A stretch of 64,000 bases of DNA from Pseudotevenvirus miller (Duplodnaviria > Heunggongvirae > Uroviricota > Caudoviricetes > Straboviridae). The stretch lies in the IMG/VR virus record IMGVR_UViG_2706796139_000001, positions 50,895 to 114,894 of that record, one strand, 5' to 3'. The position numbers were made by a program, and so were the translations under genes. Under the pieces are notes generated by a model that searched no databases, had not been told where the DNA came from, and saw only the letters and a list, made by a program, of their open reading frames with translations. This document shows positions 27,202 through 35,005 of the stretch, one piece after another. Numbering within the stretch: the stretch's first letter is position 1; each line of letters starts with the position of its first letter.

Positions 27202-27437
27202 TCCGTTTCAATACCGTGTTTGTATGCGTCAATACCCAGAGGGGTGATCAGAAGACACATATCAGTATTTTCTGTTGGTGATTTAAACGCCGTCATTGCG
27301 TACCCTTTTTCAATCAGGGCATTACGCCCTGCTTTACTGGGTACATCATTGAAGTCCAGATCCAGCACTTTTGATGCGTAGCTGTACAATTTGTAAAGCA
27401 CATCAATTTCAGCACCGGACAATTTAGGAAAACTCAT
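27192..27437 (-). CDS. hypothetical protein (81 aa)
   Basis: ORF. Confidence 0.4.
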   Translation of the reverse strand: MSFPKLSGAEIDVLYKLYSYASKVLDLDFNDVPSKAGRNALIEKGYAMTAFKSPTENTDMCLLITPLGIDAYKHGIETEWH

Positions 27438-28444
27438 TTGTAGTACCCCACAACATGATCACGATATACACGTTCAATAAAGTCGTCCCAGAACTCGCGA
27501 TCAACCTCTTTCGGATAGGTTGATACTGCTGCAAGTCGTTCGACTTCGCCCATAACTTCTTCCAGTTTTTCCTGAACAAAACTGAACGGTTTCGTTCCGG
27601 CTTTGACTTCTTTTAAAAGCTGGCTCTCTTCCAGAGGATATACGATATCACCATGTTTGTAAATGCTGATAAGCTGTAAGCCCCCGCGCAATGCGTGAGA
27701 AAGCGCTTTCCAGTCGATACCGTTGTTGGCTTCTGCCTGTCTTGCTCTTTCACCGTATTCATCCCAGAGTTTATACACGGATTTTTTCATTTCCGCAACT
27801 GTGATTGTCGATTGGAACTTACGCCCCAACACTTCGTAGAAGTCCTGACAACCCGCTTTCTGTGTTGTGTCGGTAACGAATCGACAGAACTCGTTGGTCG
27901 GGAACTTGTCTGACACTTCGCCAACTTTAACGCGGAATTCAGTTAATTGCGCCGCACGTCCAGAAGGATGACTAACCCACTCTTTACGAGTATCTTCAAG
28001 CCCCTGCAACACATCATAGATTTCACGCAGTGCAGCCAGGCGAGAACCTTTAACGCCATACTTCGCGGCTTGCTTACGAACATAACCGAACAGACCAGTT
28101 AATTCTGTAGTGTAGAAACGCCAACGGTTAGCGCGGATATACTGCCAGATTTCGGAGTTAGCGATCAGCTTACTATCTTCAGCATGAAGCATATCGAGCG
28201 CTACGGTATCACCATCACACGCAAGGCTAATGAACTTAGGCAGACTATACAACTGACGGTCAATGTCGTCTACGGTGTTTTTAGAGCTTTTATCGCCCGT
28301 GCTCGTGTCGATAGTCTTAGGGGCTTTACCCAGCAGAATATCGCGTGGATGCGGGAGAAAGATCCCTTTATAGTCTTTGTCGCTTGTCGGTGTGTTCAGT
28401 CCATACAGGTGAGAACCGAACACAGTTTCCATTACAATTTTCAT
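27434..28444 (-). CDS. pol-beta superfamily nucleotidyltransferase (YcgL/RlaP-like predicted NTase)
   Basis: ETVFGSHLYGLNTPTSDKDYKGIF matches the minimal NTase signature GS-x10-DxD. A third acidic cluster DGDTVALD follows, then a helical C-terminal domain. 336 aa. Confidence 0.65.
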   Translation of the reverse strand: MKIVMETVFGSHLYGLNTPTSDKDYKGIFLPHPRDILLGKAPKTIDTSTGDKSSKNTVDDIDRQLYSLPKFISLACDGDTVALDMLHAEDSKLIANSEIWQYIRANRWRFYTTELTGLFGYVRKQAAKYGVKGSRLAALREIYDVLQGLEDTRKEWVSHPSGRAAQLTEFRVKVGEVSDKFPTNEFCRFVTDTTQKAGCQDFYEVLGRKFQSTITVAEMKKSVYKLWDEYGERARQAEANNGIDWKALSHALRGGLQLISIYKHGDIVYPLEESQLLKEVKAGTKPFSFVQEKLEEVMGEVERLAAVSTYPKEVDREFWDDFIERVYRDHVVGYYK

Positions 28445-29946: not shown

Positions 29947-30131
29947 TAATCAGCCAGCCTTATATTGTTTGGATCAGGAACGAATGTATCTTTCTGGGTA
30001 ATCATGAACACCAGGAAAGCAGCGACTTCGGGATCTTCAATCACATTGAATTTGCGATTACCTTTCCAACGTACCGCGATTTTACCATCATCGAGTTTTT
30101 TGATTTCGGCTACTTCTGATTTCTTGCTCAT
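29946..30131 (-). CDS. hypothetical protein (about 61 aa)
   Basis: Starts MSKKSEVAEIKK after the PeSL leader. The listed 92 aa ORF reads through the promoter cassette. Confidence 0.4.
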   Translation of the reverse strand: MSKKSEVAEIKKLDDGKIAVRWKGNRKFNVIEDPEVAAFLVFMITQKDTFVPDPNNIRLAD

Positions 30132-30200
30132 AATTACCTCCTTCGTTTCGATGTCCCTAATATAGCAAAAGCCCTCACGCGAACGCAAGGGCTTTTTAAT
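30120..30200 (-). promoter_or_regulatory. PeSL-like cassette (minus strand)
   Basis: Reverse complement: aaaaagcccTTGCGTtcgcgtgagggcttttgcTATATTagggacatcgaaacgaaggaggtaattATG. Confidence 0.55.
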
Positions 30201-30299
30201 CTTTTTTATCGGCAGAACGGACAACTAAACTTATCGCCGCTTCCACCATGACGAGGACAGCAAATTTTTTCGATTGGTGTCATTGTTAAAATTTTCATC

Positions 30300-31358
30300 T
30301 TAAATTCCCGTAAACGCTACGATAATCTGATAGTGGTCATCGAAGAACTCACCACGTTTCTGTTTGACTTCGTGCATTGGCATCCAGAAAGCCTCTGCTG
30401 CATCGTCAGCGCCTCCCATGATGCGGGGCAGACTTCCATCATTGTTAGGTTCTAACTTGATGTACTGCGCCACAGTCGGTTTTGAGAAGTGTACAGAACG
30501 CTTCGGATGGTCGAACAACATCGAATTGCGGATTGAACCACGAATAACCTTTTCAGGAACCTTGATCCGAACCTCTTCGAGCAATTCACGGATCGCACAA
30601 TCCAGGAATGATTCATTTGCGTTTTTGTGTCCACCTGGCAGGGCCAACGCGCCTTTACCTGGTGCAAACTTACGACGAATTACCAGAAGGTGATTGTTAC
30701 ACACAACCACGCTATCACCCGTACAGCAGTTTAACGCGTCTGGGTATGGGTAGTTTTTGAACTTCTCCAGTTCGTCTTCCCATTTTTCGAACTCGTAATA
30801 CAAACGCCAGAATGTATCGGTCATCATCCATGAATCAATATAATTCACCGTAGATTGCGGTGCGTATTGTGCGATTTTTTCATCCCATCCGTTTTTATGC
30901 AAAAAGATGGTCGGACGCAGATCGGTAGCAGACAAATCTTTACCATCAACTTTAACCGGATCTACAGGAACATGAGTCCATCCGAACGCTTTAAGCCAGT
31001 ACGAATCAGCATCCTTTTCGTAACCATAGATCGCGATGTTATCGCCTTTGGTTTCGTCGATTGCTGTACGAACAGAGGTTTTCCATTTTTCTTCATTGTA
31101 AAGGTAATCTGGAATAGGTTTGAATTGCACACGGGATACATCTTCGTATTTGAACTCAGACAGTAACCAGCTAGTGATCATGCGTTCCCGTTCGGTTGCC
31201 GTCAGCGGGTTTAAAACGTTAGGGTAAGCGTAAGCTGAACCCAGAAGGATGTAAACGGTCTTCGACTCTTCAAGTGCTTTACGCACCATCGCTGCATGAC
31301 CATTATGGAAGGGTTGGAATCTGCCAATTACGACAGCTTTATCAAATTTGAATTTCAT
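30300..31358 (-). CDS. natV: bifunctional NMN adenylyltransferase / Nudix ADP-ribose pyrophosphatase (NatV/NadM-like)
   Basis: N-terminal GRFQPFHNGH is the (H/T)xGH nucleotidyltransferase motif. The C-terminal Nudix box is GGHKNANESFLDCAIRELLEEV. Likely start at MKFKFDKAVV. Confidence 0.85.
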   Translation of the reverse strand: MKFKFDKAVVIGRFQPFHNGHAAMVRKALEESKTVYILLGSAYAYPNVLNPLTATERERMITSWLLSEFKYEDVSRVQFKPIPDYLYNEEKWKTSVRTAIDETKGDNIAIYGYEKDADSYWLKAFGWTHVPVDPVKVDGKDLSATDLRPTIFLHKNGWDEKIAQYAPQSTVNYIDSWMMTDTFWRLYYEFEKWEDELEKFKNYPYPDALNCCTGDSVVVCNNHLLVIRRKFAPGKGALALPGGHKNANESFLDCAIRELLEEVRIKVPEKVIRGSIRNSMLFDHPKRSVHFSKPTVAQYIKLEPNNDGSLPRIMGGADDAAEAFWMPMHEVKQKRGEFFDDHYQIIVAFTGI

Positions 31359-31386
31359 AACGTGCTCCACGTTTAAAGGGTAATCA

Positions 31387-31482
31387 TAAAACAGACGCAA
31401 TAATCAATACACCAAGCAAACCGCCAATAAAGCCGAAGAATGACGAAATGAAGATAGTTAGTATAGCCTGTTTTATGTTCAT
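31387..31482 (-). CDS. 32 aa hydrophobic peptide (MNIKQAILTIFISSFFGFIGGLLGVLIIASVL)
   Basis: Unlisted small ORF between the SPFH and natV genes. Single TM helix with a weak RBS. Speculative. Confidence 0.3.
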
Positions 31483-31535
31483 TATAGTATTCTCGTTTTA
31501 AGAATCAAGCCCCCAGGAGAGGGGGCTTTAAACCC

Positions 31536-32462
31536 TTATTTACGAGAATCGAAAATCACTTTGCCAGCGTAATCCGAACCCATGACAGTCTGAGGTACAC
31601 CACCTTTATAGCGGGTAGAGTAGTTCATCTGTACATCCAGTTCTTTCCAGCGGATCATTTCTGGGGTAATTGTGCGTTGCAGTACGGCGTTAGCCTCTGC
31701 TTCTTTCTTCGCCGCGTACAGTTTAGCATCAGCATCACGTTCGTTGGCGATTGCTTCGTTTTCACGCGCCTGACGATTTGCTTCCGCTTGTTTTACTGCT
31801 TGCTGTGAAGTCTGTTCGACTTTTGCCAGTTCCGCACGAGCGGCGTTAACCTGTTCTTCGCGGATCTTCGTGTTCGTTACCTGTTCCATGATAACATCAG
31901 GCAGGGTAATATCCTGCAAGAATACCTGTTTCACGGTGTAACCGTAAGGACGTGCATACTCTTCAACTTCCTGTTGAATCGCGGTCTGCAACTGGTTCTG
32001 GATCTTAGCATCGAACAGATCCTGTGCTTTCGGAACTGATTTACCGAACTCACGAACGGTAGACAGCAGTTTTTCGGTTACATATTTATCCAGCGCTTGT
32101 TCCTGATCTCCCGCGTTAATACGGTTGATCGGCGCTTTGTTACCGTCAAATTGCAGCATAACAGTCATATCCACGGTGGATTTAAACTTATCCTGTGAAG
32201 GAACCTGCAATTTATCGAATTTCTTCGCGATGTCTTTCGTGCTGAAAGTATCGAAATCAGCCAGCGGGTTTACGATATGGAAACCAGGCATTACAGGTTT
32301 CGGAGAAACCTTACCCATGAAGGTCTGGGTTTTGACCGTACCGTCCTGTACTACTGTAAAGGAGTTCGGGATCAGCCACAGTGCGGCTACTACGCCCAGA
32401 GCGATCAGAGTGGTTTTCTTCGGGTTGTTCAGGATAGCATTCATATTCATAGTATTTCTCAT
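31536..32462 (-). CDS. SPFH / band-7 (prohibitin/HflKC/stomatin-like) domain protein
   Basis: N-terminal TM anchor (LIALGVVAALWLI), an SPFH core, and a C-terminal Ala/Glu-rich coiled coil (ARAELAKVEQTSQQAVKQAEANRQARENEAIANE). 308 aa. Confidence 0.8.
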   Translation of the reverse strand: MRNTMNMNAILNNPKKTTLIALGVVAALWLIPNSFTVVQDGTVKTQTFMGKVSPKPVMPGFHIVNPLADFDTFSTKDIAKKFDKLQVPSQDKFKSTVDMTVMLQFDGNKAPINRINAGDQEQALDKYVTEKLLSTVREFGKSVPKAQDLFDAKIQNQLQTAIQQEVEEYARPYGYTVKQVFLQDITLPDVIMEQVTNTKIREEQVNAARAELAKVEQTSQQAVKQAEANRQARENEAIANERDADAKLYAAKKEAEANAVLQRTITPEMIRWKELDVQMNYSTRYKGGVPQTVMGSDYAGKVIFDSRK

Positions 32463-32524
32463 TTAAGGTTATGTTTCAATTCGATAGTTATTCTATCATC
32501 ACTTTTTCGCTTGTCAAACTCTTT

Positions 32525-32908
32525 TTAAGAAAGTTTTGTCAGCTTGTAAATCGTTTGATAGCACAAGCCTTTGATCTCGTCCAGGATGTTCTTCAATGAA
32601 CTGTCTACTGAATCATAGATTTCTTCGGCTTCGGTGACTATTTTACGGAGATACGCTACCGTGTCAAGCATATTTTCAACTTTTAATACGGGTTTATAAC
32701 GTCCTGTAATGCCTATATGGATCTCGGTGAATTTATCAACTAAATCCTGCATATCTTCGTAAAAACCCTCGTATGCCTTGTGTTGCGAATATGAACCAGT
32801 AGCAAAATGTGCGCTGTGCATATACGTAACGGACATCAGGCATCTGCCAATAAAGGCATCTATTTTACTTGCATTATCGCGATCGACAACTTCGTTAAAC
32901 GTTTGCAT
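32525..32908 (-). CDS. hypothetical protein (127 aa)
   Basis: ORF downstream of the rI-like gene. Confidence 0.45.
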   Translation of the reverse strand: MQTFNEVVDRDNASKIDAFIGRCLMSVTYMHSAHFATGSYSQHKAYEGFYEDMQDLVDKFTEIHIGITGRYKPVLKVENMLDTVAYLRKIVTEAEEIYDSVDSSLKNILDEIKGLCYQTIYKLTKLS

Positions 32909-34315: not shown

Positions 34316-34520
34316 GTTTAGAACGTTCCTCTGCAATAGCATCTTCTACCGCGTCTTCAACTTCCTTTTCAACGAACGCGATAATGTCATCAACCATGTT
34401 ATTGATATATGTCATGTTCAGGTTGCGTGAATCTGGATCGTCTTCTGCTGCATAGTCCTGGTAAAGTTCTCCCAGTTCTTTCAGCTTATGTTTTAACACT
34501 TTTTCTTCTTGATGTCTCAT
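34308..34520 (-). CDS. hypothetical acidic protein (70 aa)
   Basis: ORF. Confidence 0.4.
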   Translation of the reverse strand: MRHQEEKVLKHKLKELGELYQDYAAEDDPDSRNLNMTYINNMVDDIIAFVEKEVEDAVEDAIAEERSKHG

Positions 34521-35005
34521 AATTCCACCTTGCGCATATCAACCGAAGGATCGAAGTGTACCACGATGATCGGATAGTCACCTGTACATTCATCAATGAT
34601 GCGTTTAATGTGTTCCCAATCTCCCCCAGCAAGTCCCGCGCCGATAAGAGGGGTAACTATAGGAAATTGTTTAGGACACGCCCTAGCGCTTTCCACTGCA
34701 CTTTCAAAGCAAGTTTTAATCGCATCGTAATCAACTTGCGGACCAGCACCCCAGAATTTAAACTGGGTATAGGCATTGAATACCATACGACCATCCTCTT
34801 GAACATAAACAGAGTTACGGCCCAACTTGTTCTGATTGCCTTTCATCGTCATTGCATCAGCTTTGAACGCATTAGGAATTTTATGTTTTACTTCTTTTGC
34901 GATACCCGCACCCATGTTACAGAAGCAGTTGCACCCGTGGATCAGGTGTACGTCACGACGAAGGAACAATTCAACCGCGTTCCCTTTAATCTCTTTGATA
35001 ATCAT
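34517..35005 (-). CDS. macro domain protein (ADP-ribose binding/processing, YmdB-like)
   Basis: HGCNCFCNMGAGIAKE ... TPLIGAGLAGGDWE motifs, 162 aa. Confidence 0.8.
   Translation of the reverse strand: MIIKEIKGNAVELFLRRDVHLIHGCNCFCNMGAGIAKEVKHKIPNAFKADAMTMKGNQNKLGRNSVYVQEDGRMVFNAYTQFKFWGAGPQVDYDAIKTCFESAVESARACPKQFPIVTPLIGAGLAGGDWEHIKRIIDECTGDYPIIVVHFDPSVDMRKVEL

Follow-up and report, generated by a model that had tools for sequence, protein, structure and literature searches.

Do three adjacent genes in the genome of Citrobacter phage vB_CfrM_CfP1, encoding an SPFH/band-7 membrane protein, a hydrophobic peptide of 32 amino acids (aa) and a NatV-type enzyme with nicotinamide mononucleotide (NMN) adenylyltransferase (NMNAT) and Nudix domains, constitute a dedicated three-part system, or do they simply lie side by side? 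CfP1 (KX245890/NC_031057) is an RB43-like T4-type phage (Pseudotevenvirus miller), and the window, that is, the whole stretch of DNA analysed here, covers 64 kb of this record (record position = window position + 50894, up to record position 114894), to which window positions 30000-32700 match at 100% identity by megablast. The genes belong to the tk-rI accessory (hyperplastic) region of T4-type genomes, where the minus-strand order is tk, rI, rI.-1, the SPFH gene, a hairpin, the small open reading frame (ORF), the NMNAT-Nudix gene (hereafter natV), a 30-aa ORF and a terminator. A preliminary description of this DNA reported the SPFH gene, the hairpin, the hydrophobic 32-codon ORF and the NMNAT-Nudix gene, and all four are present on this strand where it placed them (Table 1). 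We favour, with a probability of about 0.7, the view that the row consists of three accessory early genes that evolve separately, rather than being a dedicated three-part system, and base this on the identities and conservation of the genes, the coding-type selection acting on the small ORF, the presence of a nadV gene in the same genome and the fact that each of the three genes is distributed independently of the others. The locus is thus mostly ordinary: its components related to nicotinamide adenine dinucleotide (NAD+) and its SPFH component have already been described, and what is left is a conserved small membrane-protein gene that is absent from the annotation of this record.

The 32-codon ORF is very likely a real protein-coding gene for a small membrane protein, as judged from its retention among relatives, the codon-position bias of its substitutions and a ratio of nonsynonymous to synonymous differences (pN/pS) that is low in its own frame only. 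Length by itself is no argument, because 32 codons do not exceed chance expectation (with 25 aa or more as the limit, 88 ORFs overlap 7 kb of the region, and shuffled versions of the micropeptide sequence are open 12–18% of the time); the evidence resides in conservation and in the pattern of substitutions among relatives. The 206-nt SPFH-natV junction was recovered by DNA search in 177 records of phages belonging to Pseudotevenvirus, Slopekvirus or their relatives, with 84–100% identity in all but two of them. Conservation in related phages was one of the checks that the preliminary description had put forward for this ORF, and it came out in its favour: the frame is open in all 35 related loci collected from phage records, IMG/VR, metagenomes and assemblies (11 distinct DNA variants), encoding either 32 or 36 aa, and a GAG-type Shine-Dalgarno-like motif resembling a ribosome-binding site is kept 6–9 nt upstream of the ATG in every lineage. 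A metagenome scan with the conserved natV initiation motif yielded 26 matches, nine of which were true loci, all with the same architecture. Pseudotevenvirus and Slopekvirus have the 32-aa form, and three environmental lineages as well as Pantoea phage Phynn have the 36-aa form; common to both forms are an M-x-x-K-Q start, spaced Gly residues forming small-residue repeats, and an A-S-V-L end.

The substitution pattern is that of a coding sequence. Within the 32-aa group, variable columns fall at codon positions 1, 2 and 3 in the proportion 9:2:15, and the summed pN/pS is 0.17 in the frame of the ORF, the other two frames giving 0.66 and 3.68. When CfP1 is compared with a Slopekvirus, pN/pS is 0.12 for SPFH, 0.18 for the micropeptide ORF and 0.24 for NatV. 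Among the 36-aa forms, mutual differences amount to 23–37% of nucleotides, and nevertheless all of these forms remain open and hydrophobic. The preliminary description had called the ORF unannotated, and it is indeed missing from the CfP1 annotation in both the GenBank and the RefSeq versions; it is annotated as a hypothetical coding sequence in vB_EcRAM-01, phi1_146010, Roth22 and Phynn, and has thus been overlooked in the CfP1 record, yet is not new to GenBank.

The genes on the two sides of the micropeptide have distributions of their own. An SPFH homologue is present in 722 phage records and a NatV homologue in 432 of them in separate searches, compared to the 177 with the junction studied here; Salmonella phages, which contribute 273 of the SPFH records, are outside the ten commonest organism names of the NatV search. 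In tequintaviruses, an SPFH gene with 76–78% protein identity lies beside tRNA genes and is not followed by a small ORF. The micropeptide is likewise absent from Proteus and Aeromonas phages and from a contig in which the SPFH gene follows TerD/vWA genes, and the peptide-free SPFH orthologues (T5-like, Proteus and Aeromonas phages and contig L073) are 59–78% identical to that of CfP1. Elsewhere, natV is preceded by a gene for a TM2-type membrane protein (Aeromonas phages), by one for a 148-aa membrane protein (Serratia phage 92A1) or directly by nadV (IMG/VR contigs L042/L043). The most informative locus is that of a 179-kb T4-like contig, L071, in which tk, rI, rI.-1, SPFH and a hairpin are followed after 56 nt by natV, without the micropeptide. 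This contig shares the natV initiation region, AAACGTGGAGCACGTTATG, with the peptide-bearing clade, but its NatV is an outgroup (~60% identity) to that of the clade members, which are 66–89% identical among themselves; hence, the peptide was either gained once after the split or lost once. Because L071 retains both SPFH and NatV without the peptide, neither neighbour needs it and, given that all occurrences of the peptide belong to one lineage, their adjacency carries no independent statistical weight. A sliding identity profile, which could indicate whether recombination moves the peptide together with SPFH or with NatV, was mosaic and pointed to neither.

The link between an SPFH gene and an NAD+-salvage gene, presented in the preliminary description as new, does not stand as such: the genes occur independently, they are kept apart by a terminator-like hairpin and a conserved promoter, and the adjacency has been visible in RB43 since the comparison of T4-like genomes in 2006, which catalogued RB43ORF138c (NUDIX + cytidylyltransferase), RB43ORF139c (SPFH) and RB43ORF255w (NAPRTase) (PMC1524935). 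As a separate observation, small membrane-protein genes unrelated to the micropeptide directly precede natV in other lineages, with products of 77–80 aa that are TM2-like (L023:6626-6859 and L026:2254-2496) or of 148 aa (L025:2001-2447); this may be a coincidence in accessory regions rich in membrane-protein genes.

The NAD+ side of the locus becomes clear once the whole genome is considered. The preliminary description found no NadV-like partner, and this holds for the 64-kb window, which contains no gene for nicotinamide phosphoribosyltransferase (Nampt), but not for the genome, because a 477-aa Nampt (NadV) is encoded at record positions 152140-153573, ~70 kb from natV (RefSeq annotation). 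It consists of NAMPT_N and NAPRTase domains and scores 459 bits against the NCBIfam model NF006629, above the equivalog cut-off of 405. A nadV found elsewhere was named in the same description as the outcome that would make this a standard NadV/NatV pair; such a pair it is, with the two genes unlinked. As judged from its gene content, the phage carries a complete but split NAD+ reconstitution pathway 2 (NARP2), which has already been described: Table S2 of the paper that defined NARP2 classes the Nampt of this phage (KX245890_00238) as ‘Nmnat-associated’, and the same paper reported that the Nampt and Nmnat of phage KVP40 rebuild NAD+ and overcome Thoeris and DSR2. By analogy with the KVP40 homologues, NatV and NadV of CfP1 would have the same enzymatic activities and anti-defence role. 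The NAD+ biology of this phage therefore needs no new explanation.

Both neighbours of the micropeptide are readily assigned to known families. In NatV, Pfam domains CTP_transf_like (E=1.4e-8) and NUDIX (E=2.3e-14) occupy the N- and C-terminal parts, respectively, and the translation contains the motifs GRFQPFHNGH and SATDLR as well as a Nudix box, GGHKNANESFLDCAIRELLEEVRI, with one Gly-to-Arg deviation; among solved NadM-Nudix structures, it matches 2QJO (E=2.7e-53, over residues 1–349) and 2QJT (E=3.4e-47). The SPFH protein, read from the sequence as an N-terminal hydrophobic stretch, TTLIALGVVAALWLIP, followed by the SPFH domain and a charged helical region, matches Pfam Band_7 (PF01145; E=4.7e-15, 56.5 bits, gathering cut-off 23.6) and is assigned to phrog_200 (E=5e-79); its closest solved relative is QmcA (8Z5G; E=1.8e-5), and a PADLOC search returned no match for it. 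All close SPFH homologues in a large protein database are on phage-sized contigs. The 76–78% identity is between RB43-like myoviruses and T5-like siphoviruses (e.g. L022, Escherichia phage IrisVonRoten, 3001-3948, and many Tequintavirus records), so that the RB43-like SPFH protein is closer to the T5-like one than to that of some T4-like relatives, suggesting a recent transfer of the gene between phage families.

The anatomy of the junction separates SPFH from natV in some relatives more than in others. The 46-nt stretch containing the hairpin is unusually stable (−21.8 kcal/mol, z=−3.8, 0/200 shuffles as stable), and relatives keep the stem even though loop and stem sequences vary. Its T tract is poor (GATTCTT), and its 3′ arm overlaps the −35 element of the promoter that follows. 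In all 32-aa-type loci, this internal promoter matches the consensus at 9–12 of 12 positions and its spacer is invariably 16 nt long; it is a perfect TTGACA-16-TATAAT (12/12) in Slopekvirus and falls to 9/12 only in phage Miller. By contrast, no comparable internal promoter (7–8/12) is present in the 36-aa-type loci. The exact motif GGGCTTGA-N16–20-TANNAT occurs in a single copy in the 64-kb window, namely this one. If these predicted elements are active as promoters and terminator, the overlap of the −10 element with the ATG means that any transcript from the internal promoter would have its 5′ end within the ORF and could serve natV only, and that the peptide would need transcripts started upstream, e.g. 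at the putative promoter of the SPFH gene (32517..32490), which read through the hairpin. Since the 36-aa-type loci lack the internal promoter, natV would depend on read-through there as well. The locus had been called operon-like; co-transcription by read-through is indeed plausible and fits the promoterless 36-aa-type relatives, but in the 32-aa-type loci the hairpin and the conserved promoter split SPFH from NatV. In phage Miller (L003), a 1-nt insertion changes TATAATG to TATAAATG, weakening the sigma70 −10 element. The altered site is a 7/8 match to TATAAATA, which we take to be the T4 late-promoter motif.

The NatV initiation region is identical throughout the clade, including L071. Inverted repeats around the natV Shine-Dalgarno bases are also present in other lineages (Serratia phage 92A1, L025:2483-2497; L034; L037), where they read TGAG-GAG-CTCA, GAGG-GGAGT-CCTC and ACTTG-GGAGT-CAAGT; differing in sequence from lineage to lineage, they look like a case of covariation, and each of the folds is weak and not better than shuffles. 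An Rfam search of positions 30100-32700 for a riboswitch or leader, such as an NAD+ riboswitch in the 125 nt before natV, produced two sub-threshold chance matches only.

Table 1. Features of the SPFH-natV locus of phage CfP1 and two nearby genes, in window coordinates.
Feature	Position	Strand	Remarks
Macro-domain protein gene	34517-35005	−	annotated hypothetical; Pfam Macro E=2.4e-7; resembles the DarG macro domain (PADLOC E=5.6e-11)
Sigma70-like promoter before SPFH gene	32490..32517	−	TTGACA-16-TAGAAT, TG before −10; consensus scan 11/12; rI.-1/SPFH intergenic region
SPFH/Band-7 membrane protein gene	31536..32462	−	308 aa from first ATG; 304 aa from GenBank start 32450
G+C-rich hairpin	~31507..31528	−	stem AAGCCCCC/GGGGGCTT, 8 bp; 8 nt past SPFH stop; GenBank ‘terminator’
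Sigma70-like internal promoter	31481..31508	−	TTGATT-16-TATAAT; scan 10/12; last two −10 bases are A and T of the micropeptide ATG
Micropeptide gene	31384..31482	−	32 aa, MNIKQAILTIFISSFFGFIGGLLGVLIIASVL; single hydrophobic helix, grand average of hydropathy 1.88
NatV initiation region	31359..31373	−	inverted repeat AACGTG-GAG-CACGTT around Shine-Dalgarno bases, up to the ATG
NatV-type NMN adenylyltransferase/Nudix (ADP-ribose pyrophosphatase) gene	30300..31358	−	352 aa; start 25 nt past the micropeptide ORF
Cys/His-rich ORF	30206..30298	−	30 aa, MKILTMTPIEKICCPRHGGSGDKFSCPFCR; zinc-knuckle-like CxxH...CPxC spacing; start 1 nt past natV stop (TAAGATG)
RlaP-type nucleotidyltransferase gene	27434-28444	−	PF10127, E=6e-13

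Several observations weigh against a row of independent genes as we have outlined it, or against parts of that outline. The peptide is found solely at SPFH-NatV junctions, which a functional tie to one of the neighbours would also predict, and its pS (0.49) is nearer to that of SPFH (0.46) than to that of NatV (0.72), a comparison that involves 99 nt, too little to rely on. The central part of the 36-aa forms is weakly constrained (pN/pS 0.56). Promoter-like matches are not enriched in the region (42 found versus 40.4 expected from shuffles), and support for the promoters hence rests on their conservation across species. Finally, NatV matches the NCBIfam bifunctional NMNAT/Nudix models with E=1.7e-77 and 261 bits, below the equivalog cut-off of 397, so that we infer its exact substrate range. 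One rival reading is that the small ORF is not translated at all, the stretch being conserved as promoter and 5′ leader of natV and kept open by chance, because T-rich sequence yields hydrophobic codons and few stops. The overlap of the −10 element of a conserved promoter with the ATG, the weakness of the Shine-Dalgarno-like motif, the proportion of shuffles that stay open and the lack of a PHROG or Pfam family for the peptide are all in line with such a reading, but the 9:2:15 pattern and the frame-specific pN/pS are not. Furthermore, the ORF is open in at least four divergent lineages (63–77% nucleotide identity) separated by an in-frame length difference of 12 nt, and it is retained in the 36-aa lineages, which have no promoter to conserve; we regard an untranslated stretch as highly improbable. 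Only marginally better is the standing of a translated leader ORF controlling NatV, either by opening the Shine-Dalgarno stem or by termination and reinitiation 25–30 nt before the NatV ATG. In every locus, the ORF does stop 25–30 nt ahead of the NatV start, the initiation region with its GAG inverted repeat is invariant, and the peptide occurs solely upstream of natV. However, the purifying selection acts on amino acids and tolerates many synonymous changes, which a pure leader does not require; L071 and all other natV lineages lack the ORF but have an initiation region that is similar or identical; a transcript begun at the internal promoter would not include the ATG of the ORF; and the stem is weak, being no more stable than shuffled sequences.

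A tie to the other neighbour is also unlikely, though less so than either of these. The preliminary description suggested that the peptide might be an NfeD-like partner of the SPFH protein, as is common in bacteria, where NfeD pairing is limited to SPFH subfamilies 1, 2 and 5 (PMC2636767). This idea fails in its literal form: the peptide has no NfeD domain, is too short at 32 aa for the NfeD soluble domain, matches nothing in Pfam, PHROGs, NCBIfam or PADLOC, and is not inherited together with SPFH, as shown by its absence from T5-like, Proteus and Aeromonas phages, from the TerD/vWA context and from L071. In a looser form, it would be a membrane partner of the SPFH protein analogous in function to NfeD or other small SPFH-cage proteins, co-transcribed by read-through, with its Gly repeat packing on the anchor helix. 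The peptide is always encoded directly downstream of SPFH on the same strand, the poor T tract of the hairpin and the promoterless 36-aa loci make co-transcription plausible, its pS is close to the SPFH value, and a single helix with small-residue repeats is suited to such packing. Yet it matches neither NfeD nor any other family, SPFH orthologues with 59–78% identity (including that of L073) do without such an ORF, L071 keeps SPFH and NatV but not the peptide, and the linkage is confined to a single lineage, with no independent replication. Slightly more doubtful still is the specific and speculative elaboration that the 32–36-aa peptide is a dedicated, NfeD-independent transmembrane accessory of the SPFH cage, which would alter the contents of the cage or its contact with host membrane proteases and would have been born in a leader region inside a terminator/promoter cassette.

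We therefore return to three separately evolving genes, for which the following scenario can be proposed. The SPFH protein would be a phage-specific band-7 membrane scaffold with one N-terminal anchor helix, expressed from its own promoter, with its gene ending in a strong, T-poor hairpin. The micropeptide, translated from read-through transcripts, would be a single-pass peptide of the inner membrane, probably with its N-terminus inside, because its sole charge is Lys4, and with a Gly repeat of the type that packs helices together; its most likely role is that of a stand-alone small membrane effector or modulator acting early in infection and dispensable for both neighbours. NadV would convert nicotinamide and phosphoribosyl pyrophosphate to NMN, and NatV would convert NMN and ATP to NAD+, so that NatV and the distal NadV together would form NARP2, whereas the Nudix half of NatV may recycle ADP-ribose. 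This pathway would restore NAD+ under depletion by Thoeris, DSR, SIR2-type or similar defences. Transcription of natV would start mainly at the internal promoter in the 32-aa-type phages and depend on read-through in their 36-aa-type relatives.

The analysis has several practical consequences. The annotations of CfP1, Miller, RB43 and Lw1 can be corrected by the addition of a conserved small membrane-protein gene. Among the many uncharacterised phage membrane peptides, this one is a small and tractable target with clear evidence of selection, and L071 supplies a natural contrast between presence and absence. More generally, adjacency in the hyperplastic regions of T4-type phages is a poor guide to function, as genes sit there in independent terminator/promoter cassettes.

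Other genes of the neighbourhood illustrate the accessory character of this region. The rI gene encodes an antiholin (Pfam PF24205) and rI.-1 a DUF5856 protein. Immediately downstream of natV, the Cys/His-rich 30-aa ORF is kept in RB43 (with a TAATG overlap, unannotated) and vB_EcRAM-01 and is absent from Miller/IME-CF2 (~92-nt deletion), Slopekvirus and Phynn; it is an optional add-on of some relatives only. The macro-domain gene lies 3 kb upstream of natV and is a possible counter-defence candidate that would reverse ADP-ribosylation. The RlaP-type gene lies 2 kb downstream of natV, and in Serratia phage 92A1 a ‘nucleotidyltransferase’ gene is likewise located ~1.3 kb downstream of natV.

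Comparison with known systems places each component. NatV resembles the NadM-Nudix proteins of Synechocystis (2QJO) and Francisella (2QJT/2R5W) in its full-length two-domain alignment and its HxGH, SxTxxR and Nudix box motifs, but is phage-encoded, has Arg in place of one Nudix-box Gly and scores below the NCBIfam cut-off. Like KVP40 with its NARP2, CfP1 combines the same two enzyme families in one genome and its NatV has the same two-domain architecture (NatV is ~41% identical to several homologues from jumbo Vibrio phages), but the two genes are ~70 kb apart instead of forming one expression unit. Similar to the bacterial SPFH-NfeD operons (QmcA/YbbK-YbbJ and YqiK-YqiJ), of which QmcA is the closest solved relative of the phage protein, a small membrane-protein gene follows SPFH on the same strand; here, however, the follower is 32 aa long without an NfeD domain, there is a promoter as well as a terminator-like hairpin between the two genes, and the pairing is missing in most homologues. 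The closest parallel for the junction itself is provided by the PeSL (promoter early stem-loop) cassettes described by Arbiol, Comeau and Krisch, in which a stem-loop terminator and a strong sigma70 promoter are inserted between accessory genes of T4-type phages (PMC2839356, PMC4122927). As in these cassettes, the hyperplastic region of CfP1 has a stem-loop and, immediately after it, a near-consensus sigma70 promoter, with the difference that the −10 element here shares two bases with the ATG of a conserved small ORF.

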